Sequence record: PZ049726.1
Source of the DNA: a phage
Direction: 5' to 3' (one strand)
Length of the DNA stretch: 6,125 nucleotides
Each line of letters begins with the position of its first letter. Positions within the stretch are counted from its first letter, which is position 1. Positions 145 to 5,811 of the stretch are shown piece by piece. A program made the position numbers and the translations under genes. The notes under the pieces were generated by a model. That model had not been told where the DNA came from. It ran no database searches and saw nothing but the letters and a program-made list of their open reading frames with translations.

Positions 145-1095
145 TTATATTTTGTGTTTAAATGCAACTATTCTTATATTCTTATTCTCGTAAACTCTGT
201 TCCAGTTTGCTTGATTTGCTAACTCAGCATTTGAAGGTGATTTTTTAGCAACAGAAGCATCAGTAAACTTAACACCTCTTGGATGTAGTAAGAAGTGTTG
301 TCTGTTTATTAATATATCTTCTCCAGCTAATGAATCTCTGTCTGTTTCAGTTGGTACAGGAGCAGCTCCATTACCTTCACCTATTGCACCTTGTCCGAAT
401 AAGTATGTAGTATATACATCTCCATCTTTAGGACAACCATCATCAACTATAACTTTTCTTCCTAAGTATGAAGGGAAATCAACAACTCCTTGAGAGTTAG
501 GTATATATTGAATTAAGTTTTGTTTCTCTAGTTCTGCAAATACAGTTGAGTGCATAGCAACTGCAGTTAACTTATCAGATGCATCTCCTAGTTTTGTTTT
601 AGCATCTATAAAAGAAGTTCCATTTATTTTAGCTAAGTCCCCTTCAAGAGAAGATATGTCATGTACGTTTCCACTCATTGTACTCGAAGCAAATACACCT
701 TTTAAAACAGCTAATAATGTTTTTTGTCTCTGTCTTGCCCAATATTCAGCCACTAAATCACCTATAGCTTTCATTGGATCATCACCACTTAAAGCCGTTG
801 CTAAGTCATTAACTGACCACGCTTTACCTCTCATTAATAAAGCAGCAACGTCTTGACCTGCAGTTATTTTACCAGGTGTTAATGCTCCATTATCATCTAA
901 AACTTCATCATCACCATTTAAATCTTTCCAGTATGGCATATTTATTAATCTACCACCTGCTAATGCTAAAGAATCTAATTCTTTGTCCTTAACAATTATT
1001 CCACACTTTACCAATGCAGATAATTCAGCTGTCCTTTCTATAACATAAGGGTTAAATACCTCTGGTACTATTACATCAGCTATCTTTGTTGACAT
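145..1095 (-). CDS. Major capsid protein, SPP1 gp13-like (HK97 fold)
   Basis: 316-aa ORF. N-terminal ADVIVPEVFNPYV, NMPYWKDL and LSGDDPM, and C-terminal ILINRQHFLLHPRGVKF and ANWNRVYENKNIRIV, match my recollection of SPP1 gp13-type capsid proteins. It sits directly after the scaffold gene, as in SPP1. Confidence 0.9.
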   Translation of the reverse strand: MSTKIADVIVPEVFNPYVIERTAELSALVKCGIIVKDKELDSLALAGGRLINMPYWKDLNGDDEVLDDNGALTPGKITAGQDVAALLMRGKAWSVNDLATALSGDDPMKAIGDLVAEYWARQRQKTLLAVLKGVFASSTMSGNVHDISSLEGDLAKINGTSFIDAKTKLGDASDKLTAVAMHSTVFAELEKQNLIQYIPNSQGVVDFPSYLGRKVIVDDGCPKDGDVYTTYLFGQGAIGEGNGAAPVPTETDRDSLAGEDILINRQHFLLHPRGVKFTDASVAKKSPSNAELANQANWNRVYENKNIRIVAFKHKI

Positions 1096-1115: not shown

Positions 1116-1730
1116 TTATTTATTATTTTTTAATTGTTCTGCTAGTGTTGGGTTTTCTTTTAAAATCCTTGCTTGCTCTGTAAGATTGAAAGTTTCTTTT
1201 GCCCAAGGATTAGCTACACTTTGTCCTTTTCTTCCGTAATTTCCTACTCCACCAGTATTTTTAGGAGTTAGCTCTTCAAACAAATAACTATCACTTTCTC
1301 TTAAGCCTTTTATTTGACTTTCTAAACCTTCTAACTTTCCATCTTGATATTTTATACTTTCCATATCAAGTAAAGCTTTTATAGCCTTACTATTCTTACA
1401 TTTCGAACTATTCAAGGCATTATCAAGAGCATAATCAAACTCCATAGCTTTTATTTTATTCTCATATTGTTCAGAAGCTTGTTTATTTGTAAGCTGTAAC
1501 TCCTCTATTTGCTTTACTAGAGTTTCATTGTCTTTATTGTTCTTAGATAAATCTTCTAACTGTGTTTTGTAGTCAGTTAATCTATTATCTAACTCTTTTT
1601 TTTGTTCATTCACTTGGTCGAATCTAGCTTTAGGTATAAAGTTTCCATCATCAACCATTATCTTTTTATCACCTAACTTAGATGTCACTTGGTTATAAAG
1701 TTCTTCTCCTAACAATTGTTTTAAATCCAT
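1116..1730 (-). CDS. Phage scaffold protein (GP20 / minor structural protein family)
   Basis: 204-aa ORF. N-terminal LGEELYNQVTSKLGDKKIMVDDGNFIPKARFDQVNEQ is followed by a long charged coiled-coil-like region. It lies immediately upstream of the capsid gene. Confidence 0.8.
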   Translation of the reverse strand: MDLKQLLGEELYNQVTSKLGDKKIMVDDGNFIPKARFDQVNEQKKELDNRLTDYKTQLEDLSKNNKDNETLVKQIEELQLTNKQASEQYENKIKAMEFDYALDNALNSSKCKNSKAIKALLDMESIKYQDGKLEGLESQIKGLRESDSYLFEELTPKNTGGVGNYGRKGQSVANPWAKETFNLTEQARILKENPTLAEQLKNNK

Positions 1731-1743
1731 AATTAAATCCCCC

Positions 1744-2010
1744 TTATTTCAACTTTCCAACTTGATTTTGAAGCATGTATCCTTCTAAATACCACAATCT
1801 ATCTTTAAACCTAGATTTGCATATTTCAGCTCCAAAATCTTCATCGTAGTTAGCTGGATCTACACATGCTGAACTTTCAACTAATGTAAAACCACAAGGT
1901 AATTCCATTACAACAATTGTTATTTTCCCAAACATAGTTGTTACATGAAATTTAGAGTTGTTGTAAATTTCATCTATTTGACTTTGTTTAACTGTTATAT
2001 CAGATTTCAT
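1744..2010 (-). CDS. Small phage protein resembling the N4 Gp49 / Sf6 gp66 family (function unknown)
   Basis: 88-aa ORF. The core ...VMELPCGFTLVESSACVDPANYDEDFGAEICKSRFKDRLWYLEGYML matches the remembered family signature (NGF.v.GeSaCvdp.nfd.e.G...A...a...iW.LEGY.L). Its start overlaps the upstream stop (TAATG at 2008..2012). AGGAGGG lies upstream. Confidence 0.65.
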   Translation of the reverse strand: MKSDITVKQSQIDEIYNNSKFHVTTMFGKITIVVMELPCGFTLVESSACVDPANYDEDFGAEICKSRFKDRLWYLEGYMLQNQVGKLK

Positions 2011-2291
2011 TACTTACACCCTCCTATTTGTATTTTACCTACTTTCACAACAACCTCATTATTTTCATTTAACTCTATTACCGGTTCTTTGTAATGCTCG
2101 AATTCAACTTTAACATTTACAGACTGAATTAACTTTGTTGGTTTGATTTCTTCTGCATCTAACTTTAGAGTTCCAAATTGAGGTATTTTGAAATTTTGAA
2201 TATCTTTAGAAGATATACCTCCATAACCAAAAGATTGCTTGTTCCAATCATCTGTAAGTATTCCTATAACTTGCTTATTAATATTATCCAT
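2010..2291 (-). CDS. Hypothetical protein (93 aa)
   Basis: Intact ORF on the operon strand with GGAGG 4 nt upstream of the ATG at 2291..2289. It is translationally coupled to the next gene. I recognise no motif. Confidence 0.55.
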   Translation of the reverse strand: MDNINKQVIGILTDDWNKQSFGYGGISSKDIQNFKIPQFGTLKLDAEEIKPTKLIQSVNVKVEFEHYKEPVIELNENNEVVVKVGKIQIGGCK

Positions 2292-2393
2292 AAATCCTCC
2301 ATACGTTTTTTAGTTGTAACGACAACATAGATTAAGCTTAATTTGTTCTTTAACGCCTACAATAGAAGCTAAAAAGGCGCATAAAAAAAGAAC

Positions 2394-2522
2394 TTATAAA
2401 AAGTCCTTACCGTATTCTTTAAACCATTTATCTAGTTTTGCATTACTTTCACCATCTATCCAATTTCTAAGTTCCTCGCCTATTTGGTCGAGTTCTTTTT
2501 CAAGCACTGGTATAGTAGTACA
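2394..2522 (-). pseudogene. Orphan 3' end of a head-morphogenesis (SPP1 gp7 / Mu F family) gene: copy B of the duplicated last 42 codons plus stop
   Basis: Hand translation: CTTIPVLEKELDQIGEELRNWIDGESNAKLDKWFKEYGKDFL*. It aligns codon for codon with 3283..3411. It has no start codon or RBS of its own. The reading frame upstream is closed by the HNH stop 6 codons earlier. Confidence 0.75.
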
Positions 2523-2550
2523 TATAATAAAAGCACCTAATTAAAGGTGC
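2523..2550 (-). terminator. Candidate intrinsic terminator at the end of the HNH gene
   Basis: On the minus strand: GCACCT-TTAATT-AGGTGC (6-bp stem, 6-nt loop, 2533..2550; the HNH TAA stop spans the stem-loop boundary) followed by TTTTATTATA (2523..2532). The stem is short, so it is probably weak or leaky. Confidence 0.4.
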
Positions 2551-3224
2551 ATATCCGATAAATATTTATAAAATTGTTTTCTAGTTGTTTTTTCACCTTT
2601 ATATTTGTTGTGAAATTTATTATGACAACTTACACAAAGAGTTACTCCATTGTCTAAATCTAATCTTAAATCTTTATGAGTATCATAGCTATCCAGATGG
2701 TGTGCCACTAAATTGTATCCATCATCTTTGGTTTTACCACATATCTTGCAAGTATAATCATCTCTTTCTCTAACACTTTTACTCCAAGACTTATATCCAA
2801 ATATTCCACGATTTTCAATTCTATGATTTTCGGATATATTGTTATCATATCTTCCATTGTTTTTACCACTATTAGCTTTAGATATTTTCCTTTTATACTC
2901 TTTCGTCTGCATTACTTTTCTAAGATTATCCCTGCTTTCAGTAGAGTTTAAATAAGTATTGGCTATGTTTTTAGAATTATTTACAAATGCTTCTCTGTCG
3001 GATTTATCTGTATTCTTCCACCAATTATCAAAAGCTTCTTTTCTGCTTCTTGTATTAATTCCTAATTTTCTTAATTGTCTTGATAAATTTCCACTATCAC
3101 AATTAAGTTCTTTAGATATCATAGGTATTGACATTTCTTCATCAATGTAAAGTTTTTTTAATACCTCCGAATATTCCATTCCATATCTTTCTTCAACTTC
3201 GATCATTCTCTTAGATTTTCTCAC
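2541..3224 (-). CDS. HNH homing-type endonuclease (N-terminal HTH, NUMOD3-like linker motifs, C-terminal HNH nuclease)
   Basis: The C-terminus WSKSVRERDDYTCKICGKTKDDGYNLVAHHLDSYDTHKDLRLDLDNGVTLCVSCHNKFH is a textbook CxxC...HH...N...CxxCH HNH motif. The preferred start is GTG at 3224..3222, 6 nt after AGGAGG (3231..3236). The track's start at 3263 has no RBS. ATG at 3206 is an alternative start. Confidence 0.85.
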   Translation of the reverse strand: MRKSKRMIEVEERYGMEYSEVLKKLYIDEEMSIPMISKELNCDSGNLSRQLRKLGINTRSRKEAFDNWWKNTDKSDREAFVNNSKNIANTYLNSTESRDNLRKVMQTKEYKRKISKANSGKNNGRYDNNISENHRIENRGIFGYKSWSKSVRERDDYTCKICGKTKDDGYNLVAHHLDSYDTHKDLRLDLDNGVTLCVSCHNKFHNKYKGEKTTRKQFYKYLSDMHL

Positions 3225-3251
3225 AACAAACCTCCTAATGTTTATACTATA

Positions 3252-3280
3252 ATTATAGTACACAATCCATTAGGATTCAA
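3252..3280 (-). promoter_or_regulatory. Candidate sigma-A type promoter for the HNH gene
   Basis: On the minus strand: TTGAAT (3280..3275), a 17-nt spacer, then TATAAT (3257..3252). It lies in the short gap between the copy A stop (3283..3285) and the HNH RBS. The -10 box sits inside the 12-nt palindrome CTATAATTATAG. Confidence 0.5.
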
Positions 3281-3282
3281 GT

Positions 3283-3438
3283 TTAAATAAAGTATTTCCC
3301 ATACTTTTCAAACCAACTATCAAGCTTCGGACTTTGCTTTCCATTAACCCAGTCTTTCAATTCTTGCCCAATTTCATCAAGATTCTTTTCTAGTACGGGT
3401 ATTGTAGTGCAAAGTCCATTCGGGTGTCCAACGGCAAA
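3283..3438 (-). other. Out-of-frame 3' coding segment of the head-morphogenesis gene (conserved HPN..C motif plus copy A of the duplicated tail)
   Basis: The frame shifted -1 from ORF 3390..4220 reads FAVGHPNGLCTTIPVLEKNLDEIGQELKDWVNGKQSPKLDSWFEKYGKYFI*. This is the expected family C-terminus (HPN, Cys, ..P). That frame is closed just upstream by TAA TAA (3439..3444). Confidence 0.75.
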
Positions 3439-4220
3439 TTATTAACTGAATAAACAACTCCATTCCTACTCCTACTCATACACAATTCACAAGTTCTATG
3501 ACTACCTGAAGTAAGCCATTTAATTCCAGCAACAAACGGATTTCTTTGGCAACTTCTCTTCTGTGCTTGTTGAAAAGTATGATTTATTGCAGTACGGGCA
3601 AGTCTTTGAGCGTTATAATCAACTTGGGTAGAAGCTTTACGATATGTAGTCCTCCATTTCAAAGACTTTCTAGCACTAGGATTCAAATACACTTCCAAGT
3701 CCTTAGCAATTTCATACATAGACTTCTTTTCTGCAATTCCTTGAGCTAGAATATAGTCAATATCCTTTTCAAACTTCTTAGTGCATGCCCATATTCTTTT
3801 GCTTAAGCCTAATCTATCTTTGTAAAGCTTCCCAGACATTATTTCATTAACTGCAGCTTGAGGAACTTTAGCAAACATATCTATAAAGGTATCAGCTAAA
3901 TCTAAGCTAAAGGATTTTTTTATATCGAAGAGCATATTTAGTTGAGTTTCGTTGGCTATATTAGCAATCTCTATTAAATCCTTACTTAGTCTCTTATCAA
4001 TAGAATTAGAGAAAGTTGAAATATCTGTTTGTAAGGATTTTAATACACTTCTTACATATCTTTCGGATAAACTATCCTTTGATACTTTTGAAAGCTTCTT
4101 AGATGTATTTAAGTACATTTGCTTATATATATCTTTTATTTCTCTTTGAAGCTTCTTTGTTAGATGTATCTTTTTCTTATTAGCTTCTAGGCATAACTTT
4201 TCGTATTCTGATTTATTCAT
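3390..4220 (-). CDS. Phage head-morphogenesis / minor head protein, SPP1 gp7 / Mu F family; truncated by a frame discontinuity as it stands
   Basis: 276-aa ORF. It contains LSKRIW, YNAQRLARTAINHTFQQAQ (family RTE-like segment) and SHRTCELCMSR..NGVVYSV (CxxC...G). The in-frame tail LDTRMDFALQYPY* lacks the family's terminal motif, which appears in the -1 frame instead. It sits after the portal gene, as in SPP1. Confidence 0.85.
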   Translation of the reverse strand: MNKSEYEKLCLEANKKKIHLTKKLQREIKDIYKQMYLNTSKKLSKVSKDSLSERYVRSVLKSLQTDISTFSNSIDKRLSKDLIEIANIANETQLNMLFDIKKSFSLDLADTFIDMFAKVPQAAVNEIMSGKLYKDRLGLSKRIWACTKKFEKDIDYILAQGIAEKKSMYEIAKDLEVYLNPSARKSLKWRTTYRKASTQVDYNAQRLARTAINHTFQQAQKRSCQRNPFVAGIKWLTSGSHRTCELCMSRSRNGVVYSVNNLPLDTRMDFALQYPY

Positions 4221-4222
4221 AA

Positions 4223-4405
4223 TTATTTTCTGTTTAAATCAACATAAAGAGTTTTCTTTATGTATTTAGCCATCTCTAAATATTGACTTCTTATCTTTTT
4301 ATCTATTCTACTATCTTCTAGCATAGTTACAAAAGCATACATTGATTCTTTGAATTCATCAGTTTGTGTAAGCTTTACTTCTAAATTTATAAAGTTATCT
4401 TCCAT
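4223..4405 (-). CDS. Hypothetical protein (60 aa)
   Basis: The ORF fills the portal to gp7-like gap exactly. Its ATG overlaps the portal stop (TAATG at 4403..4407), and its stop lies 2 nt before the next ATG. No motif recognised. Confidence 0.5.
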   Translation of the reverse strand: MEDNFINLEVKLTQTDEFKESMYAFVTMLEDSRIDKKIRSQYLEMAKYIKKTLYVDLNRK

Positions 4406-5811
4406 TACTCAACTACCTCCTCAATCATTCCTATGCTATCTTCTAACATAGTCTTTTCTAATTGTATTTGCTTAAGTTCTTCATCAGCTATTTCATCAGT
4501 AGCATTTACCCACTTCTTAATATAAGTTTTCTTACTCATTGTCTGAGTATTGACTTGTTGCATATCAATAGTTTTTTCAGTATCTTCATCCTCTTGTAAT
4601 GGATATTGATTTTCTACAACTACCTCAAATTCTTCTAAGATAGGTAGCTTAGTTATGTTATAAACCTCTATCATTTCAAGAGTTGCTTTTATCATCCACT
4701 CAAGAGCAGGTCTCCAAGCTTTCATTTTCTCCTCGCACCTAGTAATAAGTTGCCAGTACAAAGCTTTCATAGACTTACCACTTGTCATCATACCTTTTAA
4801 ATCTTGGTTGTTGATTAAAGGTATATTTAAAACCTCATGCATATCAGATTTAATTCTATTAAGTGTGTTTTCCATACGCTCATTATAATTAAAATCAGTT
4901 TCTACAGTTCCTATTTGTGCTTGTTTTCCTTCACTTGCTGTTTGGTCAGTTGCTACATCCCAATATGCTCCTGGTTTTATTTTGAAATGTTTAGATGCAT
5001 CGGGATCTACATCTGTTCCATAGATAATCCTATTCATTCCTTTTCTAAGAGCATCTATATCCTCACTAGATAGTTTATTGTAAGCAACAGCATTGTCGCA
5101 TAGTTCTTCAACATCACTTTCTCCCTTTAAGTCTCCAGAAAGTCCATCATTTAATATTACATATGCTGGTATACCTGTGAGCTTTAAGTCAACATCTTTT
5201 GAAATAATTTCAATAGGAGTTCCATATCCATCGTATATACCTTCATTGAGAATACATTTGTCTTTAACCATTTCGTATTTCTGTTTCCATATCCTCTGTT
5301 CATTCTTAGTTTCTGCTTGGTTAAGTTGATAGAAGAATATAATCTTTCGTAGTTCATCTACTCTATCATCAAAAGGCTCATACACAAACTCTAAGCTAGG
5401 CACAAACATTATTCTTATTGTCTTAGTTATTGTATCTGCATGAAGCTTAATAGCAACTCTTTTACCTATGAAACAATCTCTAGCTGCTTTAATAAGTTTA
5501 TCTTCAAATAAGTTCTTTTTTAGAAGTTTTTTAATGTATTTATTTATTTCTTCTGCTTGATCCTTTAATGTATCATCGTCAACTGCAATTGAGAATGTTG
5601 GAGCTTTACCAAATAGGAATCTAGCTTCTTCTTTAATAAGCTTCTTTATATAGTTGACCTTCTTTTTAGTTGGAACATAATCCTCTTCATCAACTACCCA
5701 ATCTTGACCTGGCCCCTCATAAATATCATAAAGGTTTATAATATCACTATGTTCTTTAATTATCTCACTCCCGTAAAGTCCTTCAAGTTCAGATTTTATT
5801 ATATTTATCAT
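4405..5811 (-). CDS. Phage portal protein, SPP1 gp6 family
   Basis: 468-aa ORF directly downstream of the terminase large subunit. RBS AGGAGGTGA lies upstream of the ATG at 5811..5809. Its size, position and acidic C-terminus fit SPP1-type portals. The family call rests on synteny and overall resemblance, not a search. Confidence 0.88.
   Translation of the reverse strand: MINIIKSELEGLYGSEIIKEHSDIINLYDIYEGPGQDWVVDEEDYVPTKKKVNYIKKLIKEEARFLFGKAPTFSIAVDDDTLKDQAEEINKYIKKLLKKNLFEDKLIKAARDCFIGKRVAIKLHADTITKTIRIMFVPSLEFVYEPFDDRVDELRKIIFFYQLNQAETKNEQRIWKQKYEMVKDKCILNEGIYDGYGTPIEIISKDVDLKLTGIPAYVILNDGLSGDLKGESDVEELCDNAVAYNKLSSEDIDALRKGMNRIIYGTDVDPDASKHFKIKPGAYWDVATDQTASEGKQAQIGTVETDFNYNERMENTLNRIKSDMHEVLNIPLINNQDLKGMMTSGKSMKALYWQLITRCEEKMKAWRPALEWMIKATLEMIEVYNITKLPILEEFEVVVENQYPLQEDEDTEKTIDMQQVNTQTMSKKTYIKKWVNATDEIADEELKQIQLEKTMLEDSIGMIEEVVE

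Follow-up and report, generated by a model that had tools for sequence, protein, structure and literature searches.

The closest described system to the locus reported here is the mobA/gene 60 cassette of phage T4, in which an HNH endonuclease travels with a 50-nt untranslated insert (translational bypass). The insert blocks self-nicking, which flanking polymorphisms alone do not do, and it outlasts the loss of the endonuclease. Until homologues of mobA were surveyed in 2022, the sole phage case was T4 gene 60 that tied a homing endonuclease to translational recoding, and the cases found since then are all homologous to T4 gene 60/mobA. We analyzed a phage sequence of 6,125 nucleotides (record PZ049726.1; "the window" means this whole stretch) in which a free-standing HNH endonuclease gene sits in a gene for a minor head protein related to MuF and to gp7 of phage SPP1. 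The 3' end of the head gene is present twice, as copy A before the endonuclease gene and copy B after it. This locus is an analogue of the mobA/gene 60 cassette and not a member of that family, as it lacks the topoisomerase target, the 50-nt gap, and any detectable hairpins.

As in T4, an HNH gene lies beside a gene of an essential module, a frame-disrupting indel is found in conserved codons near the presumed cut site, and the lesion persists in genomes that appear to have lost the endonuclease. Relatives of this phage, though not the window, also share with T4 a landing codon that matches the take-off codon and a stop codon just behind the latter. On the other hand, the target is a topoisomerase in T4 and a MuF-like head protein of Paraclostridium-type Firmicutes phages here. 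T4 has one 50-nt cassette with hairpins, whereas here there are several tiny lesions (-1, +1, +6, or +11 nt) and no RNA structure was detected. Also, the T4 gene is split into two open reading frames (ORFs), while here a duplicated 3' end keeps the gene whole.

Two other kinds of homing element are similar in part. In T-even phages, the free-standing endonucleases (seg and mob) make their cuts at sites hundreds to thousands of bp away from their own genes (PMC2988022). Like them, the element in the window is intronless and intergenic, has its own promoter and terminator, is present or absent among close relatives, and has co-converted flanks; unlike them, its core has a putative half of the site on either side, which is the geometry of an intron-encoded enzyme, although no intron is present. 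In the atp6 and cob genes of fungal mitochondria, a partial C-terminal duplicate lies downstream of endonuclease ORFs and the upstream copy keeps the gene complete, as in the window. But those are LAGLIDADG or GIY-YIG enzymes in organelles, with neither a frame-breaking lesion nor recoding. We know of no comparable 3'-end duplication in a phage structural gene.

We propose, with a probability of about 0.6 for the explanation as a whole, that an HNH homing cassette has inserted into the head gene at a Cys codon, and that a frame-breaking indel together with translational recoding acts as an immunity device. The boundary at 2522 would be the right-hand junction of the cassette, which would have entered the motif ...LPLDHPNG(K/L)C TTIPV... 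at its Cys codon or within a few bases of it. The endonuclease would recognize a site that spans the HPN and Cys-Thr-Thr codons and break the DNA near the Cys codon. The features involved are:

3390..4220, minus strand: MuF / SPP1-gp7-like minor head (head morphogenesis) gene, zero frame, with a premature TAG at 3392..3390
3409..3434, minus strand: T*, the putative target in its disrupted form, covering codons P-L-D-(H)-P-N-G-L-C (from the mismatch map against the intact loci L011 and L014)
3423..3428, minus strand: frame-breaking lesion GAC ACC, in which one C of the His codon is gone (intact alleles have GAT CAT CCG), so that a -1 shift is needed
3283..3411, minus strand: copy A, read in the -1 frame, which came with the cassette and replaces the 3' end of the head gene (CTTIPVLEKNLDEIGQ...GKYFI*)
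3252..3281, minus strand: T', a remnant of the left half of the target with intact spacing and without the lesion (CTTGAAT CCT AAT GGA TTG TGT ACT A)
2541..3224, minus strand: free-standing HNH endonuclease gene (227 amino acids), GTG start at 3224, ribosome-binding site AGGAGG at 3236..3231, NUMOD3 motif
2523..2550, minus strand: cassette terminator, a hairpin (GCACCTTTAATTAGGTGC) with the stop codon of the endonuclease in its loop, then a T-tract (TTTTATTATA); consensus-level match
2394..2522, minus strand: copy B, the head gene's native 3' end after its displacement (CTTIPVLEKELDQ...GKDFL*), without a start codon and without the left half of the target

Each copy of the repeat has 42 codons and a TAA stop, and both copies match the extreme C-terminus of the head-morphogenesis profiles PHROG 1657 and 21401. 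The copies share 26 of 42 residues and 64% of their nucleotides, and given this low identity, a general repeat scan did not flag them. A sequence-only reading of this DNA had described copy B as starting abruptly. Indeed, the TGT codon (2522..2520) directly abuts the T-tract (2532..2523) that follows the hairpin (2550..2533, minus strand), and there is no alignment between the sequences that precede the two copies. The same reading had placed HPN next to Cys in copy A, but the codons there are CAC CCG AAT GGA CTT TGC, or HPN-G-L-C, with two codons in between. Copy A and the ORF upstream of it (4220..3390) are in different frames. The ORF ends with ...LPLD TRMDFALQYPY* (LPLDTRMDFALQYPY) at the TAG at 3392..3390; the stretch HPNGLCTTIPV... 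(GHPNGLCTTIPV) is in the -1 frame.

Native alleles match copy B. Its DNA differs at 1 nt in 126 from the endonuclease-free intact alleles of L011 and L014, its peptide is identical to the C-terminus of the intact alleles P0044 and P0045, and intact homologues of 310 amino acids end with ...LPLDHPNGKCTTIPVLEKELDQIGEELRNWIDGESNAKLDKWFKEYGKDFL, which is exactly the copy B peptide. The copy B junction is identical in L005 and L007. In contrast, copy A is saturated at synonymous sites relative to both copy B and the native alleles. From these comparisons, copy B is evidently the recipient's own 3' end, pushed downstream, and copy A evidently came with the HNH cassette.

A map of the mismatches to L011 and L014 locates the change from native-like to foreign sequence at 3433|3432, in the Pro codon of L-P-L: there is near-identity upstream of this point, and differences are dense from 3432 onward. 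Native sequence thus runs to 3433 and resumes at 2522, and these points are 22 nt apart in the intact allele. The native 22 nt that were replaced are A CTG GAT CAT CCG AAT GGA AAA (codons L-D-H-P-N-G-K), and the sequence imported between the switch points comprises the lesioned HPN stretch, copy A, an intergenic promoter, the HNH gene, and the terminator. This replacement looks like the footprint of an insertion at a break with almost no resection. Because the native sequence ends at 3433 and resumes at 2522, the break site is bracketed to the region that the sequence-only reading had proposed. That reading put the target at the HPN-Cys-TTIPV stretch; the location stands, as the comparative data put the break or insertion in the L-D-H-P-N-G-K|C codons, but the evidence and the mechanism it offered (silent codon differences and resistance due to them) are not supported.

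Recombination end-points cluster at the Cys codon. Copy B starts there in L084 and L020, a conversion tract in L015 has its right end there, and so does the target remnant in every cassette promoter. The location of the break or insertion is well supported by these independent comparisons among sequences, and the cut itself probably falls within it. The intact putative target site is GATCATCCGAATGGGAAATGTACTACTATACC, with …CCACTAGATCATCCGAATGGGAAATGTACTACTATACCAGTG… as the version in L011 and L014.

The sequence-only reading did not see the lesion at the HPN codons of the window. Similar lesions, of four kinds in all, are present in 8/8 HNH clusters that we examined. The -1 type is GAC ACC C, one base short of GAC CAC CC, and is found in the window, L005, L020, and L084 as well as in L001 and L016. 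The +1 type is CAT CCC TAA CGG in L007, with a Pro codon before a shifty stop. The +6 type (L008-10, L021-24, L027-30, and L071) is CAT CCN TGA CCN, with an in-frame stop between two Pro codons. The +11 type (L017-19 and L085) is CAT CCG TAG TGA AG CCA or CAT CCG TGA TAA AT CCA, with two stops and an 8-nt gap between two Pro codons. Each kind recurs in several independent assemblies, including the complete genome CP094933, so these lesions are not sequencing errors. In every allele that is linked to the endonuclease, the indel is 9-15 nt upstream of the Cys codon.

Most homologues lack a lesion: DH[PA]NG[LMK]C is intact in 109 of the 120 best homologue clusters (~90%), and 12 distinct endonuclease-free loci are intact at HPN. 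Counted by lineage, lesions are present in 8/8 with the endonuclease and in 3-4 of 15-16 without it (Fisher p = 3e-4 to 1.3e-3). As for mobA, the lesion is linked to the endonuclease and is missing from naive alleles.

The alleles with a lesion but without the endonuclease (L001, L016, L015, and L092-95) are all mosaics. L001 and L016 follow copy A and then switch to copy B-type sequence at ...EKYG|KDFL. In L015 (3740..3830), a cassette-type patch of ~75 nt surrounds a TGA lesion and ends a few bases after the Cys codon; L092 (2550..2640) has a similar patch around a TGA lesion, with its right end a few bases past the Cys codon. Judging by their sequences, these alleles look like the result of endonuclease loss or of "hit-and-run" conversion; the patched alleles of L015 and L092 are presumably resistant.

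The endonuclease itself matches the HNH family of Pfam (PF01844, E = 2.1e-8) and NUMOD3 (21.4 bits), and has weak similarity to the HNH endonuclease 5h0m in the Protein Data Bank. Its catalytic motif and zinc-binding cysteines are intact, and an alignment of ten homologues, including P0001 (99% identical to the window's protein), keeps the invariant columns (C..C, HH, N, C..CH, and FH); the homologues start with MRKSK.... The gene has its own expression signals, with a promoter at 3280..3252 and a terminator at 2550..2523, and is not in an intron or intein. A search of Rfam (E <= 1) for a group I or II intron or another known RNA around the cassette gave only a sub-threshold match to GP20-b elsewhere in the window. 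This result, and the separate ORF with its own ribosome-binding site, promoter, and terminator, speak against an intron or intein that carries the endonuclease.

In contigs, homologues with 99, 77, 64, 62, 56, 53, 52, and 46% identity are all directly downstream of a MuF-like gene; more distant relatives are in other contexts. Matches among deposited phages are at most 45% identical and are partial alignments only, and a scan of GTDB genomes with the HNH profile gave two distant, uninformative matches. The endonuclease gene is missing at the same position from L011-L014, L001, L015, and L016, and it was found in 0/16 related head genes from an unbiased sample of IMG/VR. These endonuclease-free relatives at the same locus indicate a presence/absence element, as expected for a homing endonuclease gene, and the mapped switch points between foreign and native sequence show that its flanks were co-converted.

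Both ends of the cassette core carry parts of the putative site. On the left is a half-site that ends just after the Cys codon, and on the right is the half-site of copy B, which begins with the Cys codon or the next codon and is present in the window, L005, L007, L020, and L084. The architecture is the N-terminus, then T* with its lesion and copy A, and then T', the HNH gene, and copy B.

Two observations concern the right-hand junction. In the window (2523..2546), copy B keeps the frame of the HNH ORF, with only the TAA and six codons between them. In L008-L010, the HNH ORF (P0003) continues without a frame change through the final 11 codons of a native head-gene tail (...QFDKWFKKYGSEFM*; L008 5660..5693). 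This is a minimal copy B joined to the endonuclease.

The left half-site, T', has become part of a promoter. A promoter scan found a consensus-level match (TTGAAT, 17 nt, TATAAT) at 3280..3252 that is built on T'. The window has two occurrences of the pattern CCNAATGGNNNNTGYAC where 0 are expected, one in T* (3423..3407) and the other inside this promoter, flanked by its -35 and -10 boxes (3274..3258). T' is conserved in 8/8 cassettes, with 12-16 of 21 positions matching the intact target (14-16 in seven of them and 12 in L021). The operator of the phage endonuclease I-TevI is similar in that it overlaps the enzyme's own promoter and matches the homing site at 15/20 positions; the T' of the window agrees with the intact target at 16/21 positions and is situated between the two promoter boxes. 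However, I-TevI is a GIY-YIG enzyme encoded in an intron, and the operator here is putative. T' may act as an autoregulatory operator or may be a mere insertion scar.

With this arrangement, the carrier genome would not contain a full site: the right half is missing from T' and the left half from copy B, and the 1-nt deletion in the His codon breaks T*. Since there is no complete, uninterrupted site, self-immunity could be explained without silent changes. Copy B most likely escapes cleavage because the left half of the site is missing, and the expressed copy is most likely shielded by the indel.

The deletion puts copy A out of frame, so making the full-length protein would require a -1 ribosomal frameshift. 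The product would span LPLD(H/T)PNGLCTTIPVLEK. Such a "saviour indel plus recoding" device would be functionally like the T4 mobA/gene 60 cassette.

Selection on the region after the lesion suggests that it is translated. In every lineage, the post-lesion frame is open to the normal C-terminus and the conserved residues of the family are kept. The copy A sequences of the window and L020 (both -1 type) are identical at 36/42 residues but differ by 15 silent changes (dS 1.49, dN 0.10, ratio 0.07), and the endonucleases of these two loci are only 56% identical despite the common lesion. Across lineages that share a lesion, dN/dS of copy A is about 0.07-0.2. No intact homologue among the 120 best clusters has a C-terminus that is closer than 30/42 to the window's copy A, so recent copying from an intact allele is unlikely. 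These sequence comparisons indicate purifying selection on the post-lesion region, which implies that it is translated in the shifted frame, by frameshifting or hopping.

How the frame would be restored seems to vary among lineages. In the +1, +6, and +11 types, there are Pro take-off and landing codons with a stop after the take-off codon: CCC TAA C, CCT TGA CCT, CCG TGA CCG/CCA, CCG TAG TGA AG CCA, and CCG TGA TAA AT CCA. In all three classes, re-pairing of the peptidyl-tRNA-Pro at the next CCN codon restores ...DHP-N/L-G-x-C exactly. We suggest that these relatives use either a +1 shift on CCC UAA C or a hop of peptidyl-tRNA-Pro over CCN UGA CCN or over CCG-stop-stop-NN-CCA. The CCC UAA C and CCN UGA CCN arrangements resemble shifty-stop +1 frameshifting and synthetic "stop-hops", in which the stop is a slow A-site codon and the P-site tRNA re-pairs. 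Natural in-frame stop-hops were not known at the time of a 2016 review. The CCN TGA CCN alleles are candidates, and UGA read-through would also give a near-normal protein.

The -1 type of the window fits neither model, and its lesion (GAC ACC CGA) does not have take-off and landing codons that match. In the zero frame, GAC is followed by codons that are rare in the window (ACC is 3 of 89 Thr codons and CGA is 1 of 68 Arg codons). Our best guess is a pause-driven slip of the P-site tRNA-Asp from GAC to GGA before the rare ACC CGA, after which CAC would be read.

Two other mechanisms for the window were rejected. A canonical programmed -1 ribosomal frameshift would need a slippery heptamer and a downstream structure, and neither was found. 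A hop from CCG at 3434..3432 to CCG at 3423..3421 would delete L-D-H, there is no slow codon after the take-off codon, and TTGGACAC is conserved as coding sequence.

Several lesion alleles have a G-rich run that resembles a Shine-Dalgarno sequence (GGGGAGGTG or GAGGGGGTGG, codons NGEV / REGVV) ~35 nt upstream of the Pro take-off codon: L007 (3078..3090), L008 (4745..4756; also in L015), L017 (3240..3252), and L092 (~2555). L021 does not have this run, L085 ends short of that region, and intact alleles have AGGAATGGAG there. The run is too far upstream for a classical RF2-type stimulator.

Several points weigh against the proposal that a homing cassette is paired with a protective, recoded indel. 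First, the endonuclease status is known for only a minority of the 109 intact protein clusters. Second, recombination with intact alleles could in principle renew copy A, and the argument from selection would then be weaker. Third, the lesion region of the window (TTG CCG TTG GAC ACC CGA) has no X XXY YYZ slippery heptamer, and no stimulatory RNA structure or covarying helix was found at the lesion (fold z-scores were -1.0 to +1.35, with +0.20 at the window's lesion). Fourth, the +11 relatives have an in-frame GTG that overlaps the stop (TAGTG or GTGA), so termination and reinitiation could take the place of hopping. Fifth, the copy B junctions of the window, L020, and L084 may share one ancient event; their terminators are homologous, so copy B may have been converted after one such junction had formed. 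Finally, cleavage by the HNH protein and the position of the cut are deduced from comparing sequences. SPP1 gp7 is reportedly non-essential, so a truncated protein might be tolerated.

This dispensability also speaks for a different explanation, in which the lesions are repair scars of cutting, there is no recoding, the head protein works although truncated at HP, and copy A is decaying or separately initiated. Single-base indels and the 6-nt partial duplication of the neighbouring TGACC do resemble error-prone repair, the -1 type has no frameshift signal that we could find, and GTG or ATG starts are available in L017, L085, L008, and L084. A separate start of copy A fails for the window, L007, and L021, which have no usable in-frame start codon. 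Nor would decay leave copy A open in all lineages with its conserved residues kept and with dN/dS of about 0.07-0.2, and the insertions create Pro-stop...Pro arrangements that restore HPN exactly. We consider this explanation unlikely.

We also doubt that the HPN indels are programmed recoding sites that yield short and long isoforms of the head protein, with the endonuclease targeting another site, such as the conserved intergenic region downstream. Conserved frameshifts often yield two products from phage structural genes, and the lesion alleles without the endonuclease (L001, L015, L016, and L092) would fit. Yet ~90% of homologues do without a lesion, and there are four kinds of lesion at one spot, all tightly associated with the endonuclease. 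Furthermore, both halves of the HPN-Cys site (T' and copy B) bracket the core of the endonuclease element, and the switch points between foreign and native sequence flank this same site. An isoform function with a separate endonuclease target is improbable.

The mechanism favored by the sequence-only reading was that the silent codon differences by the boundary determine resistance, with one version of CTTIPVLEK recoded so that it cannot be cleaved. Free-standing endonucleases often do rely on polymorphisms for self-immunity. As that reading had listed, both copies encode CTTIPVLEK with silent differences in 6/9 codons; compared with the native sequence, copy A has 6 silent changes within the 27 nt to the right of the Cys codon. 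However, 4.7/9 would be expected at full saturation, given the codon usage of the window, so 6/9 is no excess (P = 0.29). Nor is there any special pattern at the boundary: 11 of the 17 other conserved residues are silently different (Fisher p = 1.0). Such an even pattern is what the sequence-only reading itself had said would count against its idea. Over the whole repeat, 17/26 conserved residues have silent differences, versus 11.9 expected at saturation (P = 0.027). This favors the idea slightly, but the marginal excess is a property of the whole copy and not of the boundary.

In comparisons to L011/L014, just 12-13% of conserved codons in the gene body upstream of 3433 are silently different, versus 65% in copy A. 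From these rates, the silent differences are the old, uniform, and saturated divergence of a foreign copy A from a native copy B, rather than targeted recoding. Copy B has the sequence of naive alleles and is presumably cleavable, nicking by T4 MobA is blocked by the insert and not by flanking polymorphisms alone, and silent changes would leave the HPN indel in all eight lineages unexplained. So resistance due to silent changes is probably wrong, and we think it has little chance of being the immunity mechanism. The sequence-only reading had the right location for the target, though the evidence it used for this carries no signal.

An origin of the A/B repeat by assembly artefact or by ordinary tandem duplication, without any tie to endonuclease mobility, has nothing beyond the direct-repeat geometry to recommend it. 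It is effectively refuted, as the copies are only 64% identical in DNA, native alleles match copy B and not copy A, and the same architecture is found in independent assemblies from different samples.

A broader interpretation goes beyond the homing cassette and its protective indel, and we offer it tentatively, at somewhat less than even odds. The locus could represent the second phage system of its kind, with an evolutionary origin of its own, where a homing endonuclease is accompanied by a "saviour indel" that destroys its target within a conserved block of codons, with the frame mended by recoding. Recoding at a single Pro codon would then have taken at least four forms, namely a shift of -1, a shifty stop of the +1 type, an in-frame stop-hop of 6 nt, and a hop of 11 nt. 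No in-frame stop-hop from nature would precede the CCN UGA CCN alleles, and the half-site in the promoter would provide self-repression. If so, then a cassette unrelated to that of T4 would suggest a general evolutionary strategy of selfish nucleases that target highly conserved codons. Head genes of Firmicutes phages would hold several minimal recoding solutions at one codon, and these would be compact natural substrates (1-11 nt) for slippage and hopping of P-site tRNA-Pro, including in-frame stop-hops. Annotation pipelines miss the full-length protein, since they routinely record head genes of this type as truncated or as a pair of ORFs.

All of the genes in the window are on the minus strand and form a phage head module. 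Besides the features above, it contains:

5811..4405, minus strand: SPP1-type portal gene
between the portal gene and the MuF/SPP1-gp7-like gene (as listed in the gene order), minus strand: ORF of 60 amino acids
between copy B and the scaffold gene, minus strand: two small ORFs
1730..1116, minus strand: scaffold gene
1095..145, minus strand: major capsid protein gene

The head gene belongs to the MuF / SPP1 gp7 family, given its strong matches to PHROG 1657 and 21401 and its position after an SPP1-type portal gene. The ORF at 4220..3390 matches PHROG 1657 with E = 1.7e-56. Its match to Phage_Mu_F in Pfam is weak: the truncated ORF scores 17.5 bits, which is below the cut-off of 29.6, while intact homologues bear PF04233 and DHPNG[LMK]C. 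The ORF is 81-88% identical to intact homologues of 310 amino acids from Paraclostridium, and the nearest homologues are from Paraclostridium bifermentans and related prophages. Among deposited phages there is no close relative, with only a 78% match in the capsid and scaffold genes to a Terrisporobacter phage.

Phages with this type of head module are heavily colonized by homing endonucleases. L015 (614..1240) and L016 (659..1285) have a gene with PF13392 (HNH_3) between the terminase and portal genes. L022 (71..625) has PF13392 (HNH_3) upstream of a C-terminal fragment of the terminase, and L023 (1..98) has a GIY-YIG endonuclease at the start of the locus.

The two small genes between copy B and the scaffold gene (1744..2291, minus strand) encode a protein of 93 amino acids and an 88-amino-acid protein of the N4 gp49/Sf6 gp66 family. 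Both are missing from L001 (compared at 4935..5038), where the same ribosome-binding region runs straight into the scaffold gene; L001 has other small genes between the portal and head genes.

The intergenic region 3' of the MuF stop codon is conserved, with or without the cassette, in the related loci that we read there (L001, L005, L007, L008, L010-L016, and L020). The sub-threshold match to GP20-b is in this region downstream of the head gene (2302..2370, minus strand; 24.2 bits versus a gathering score of 36.2, E = 0.015).

Finally, the head gene of the window has a 6-nt tandem duplication at 3465..3476 (minus strand), AGTAGG AGTAGG, which gives MSRSRNG. All of the close relatives that we examined (L001, L005, L011, L014, and L016) have MSRNG instead.

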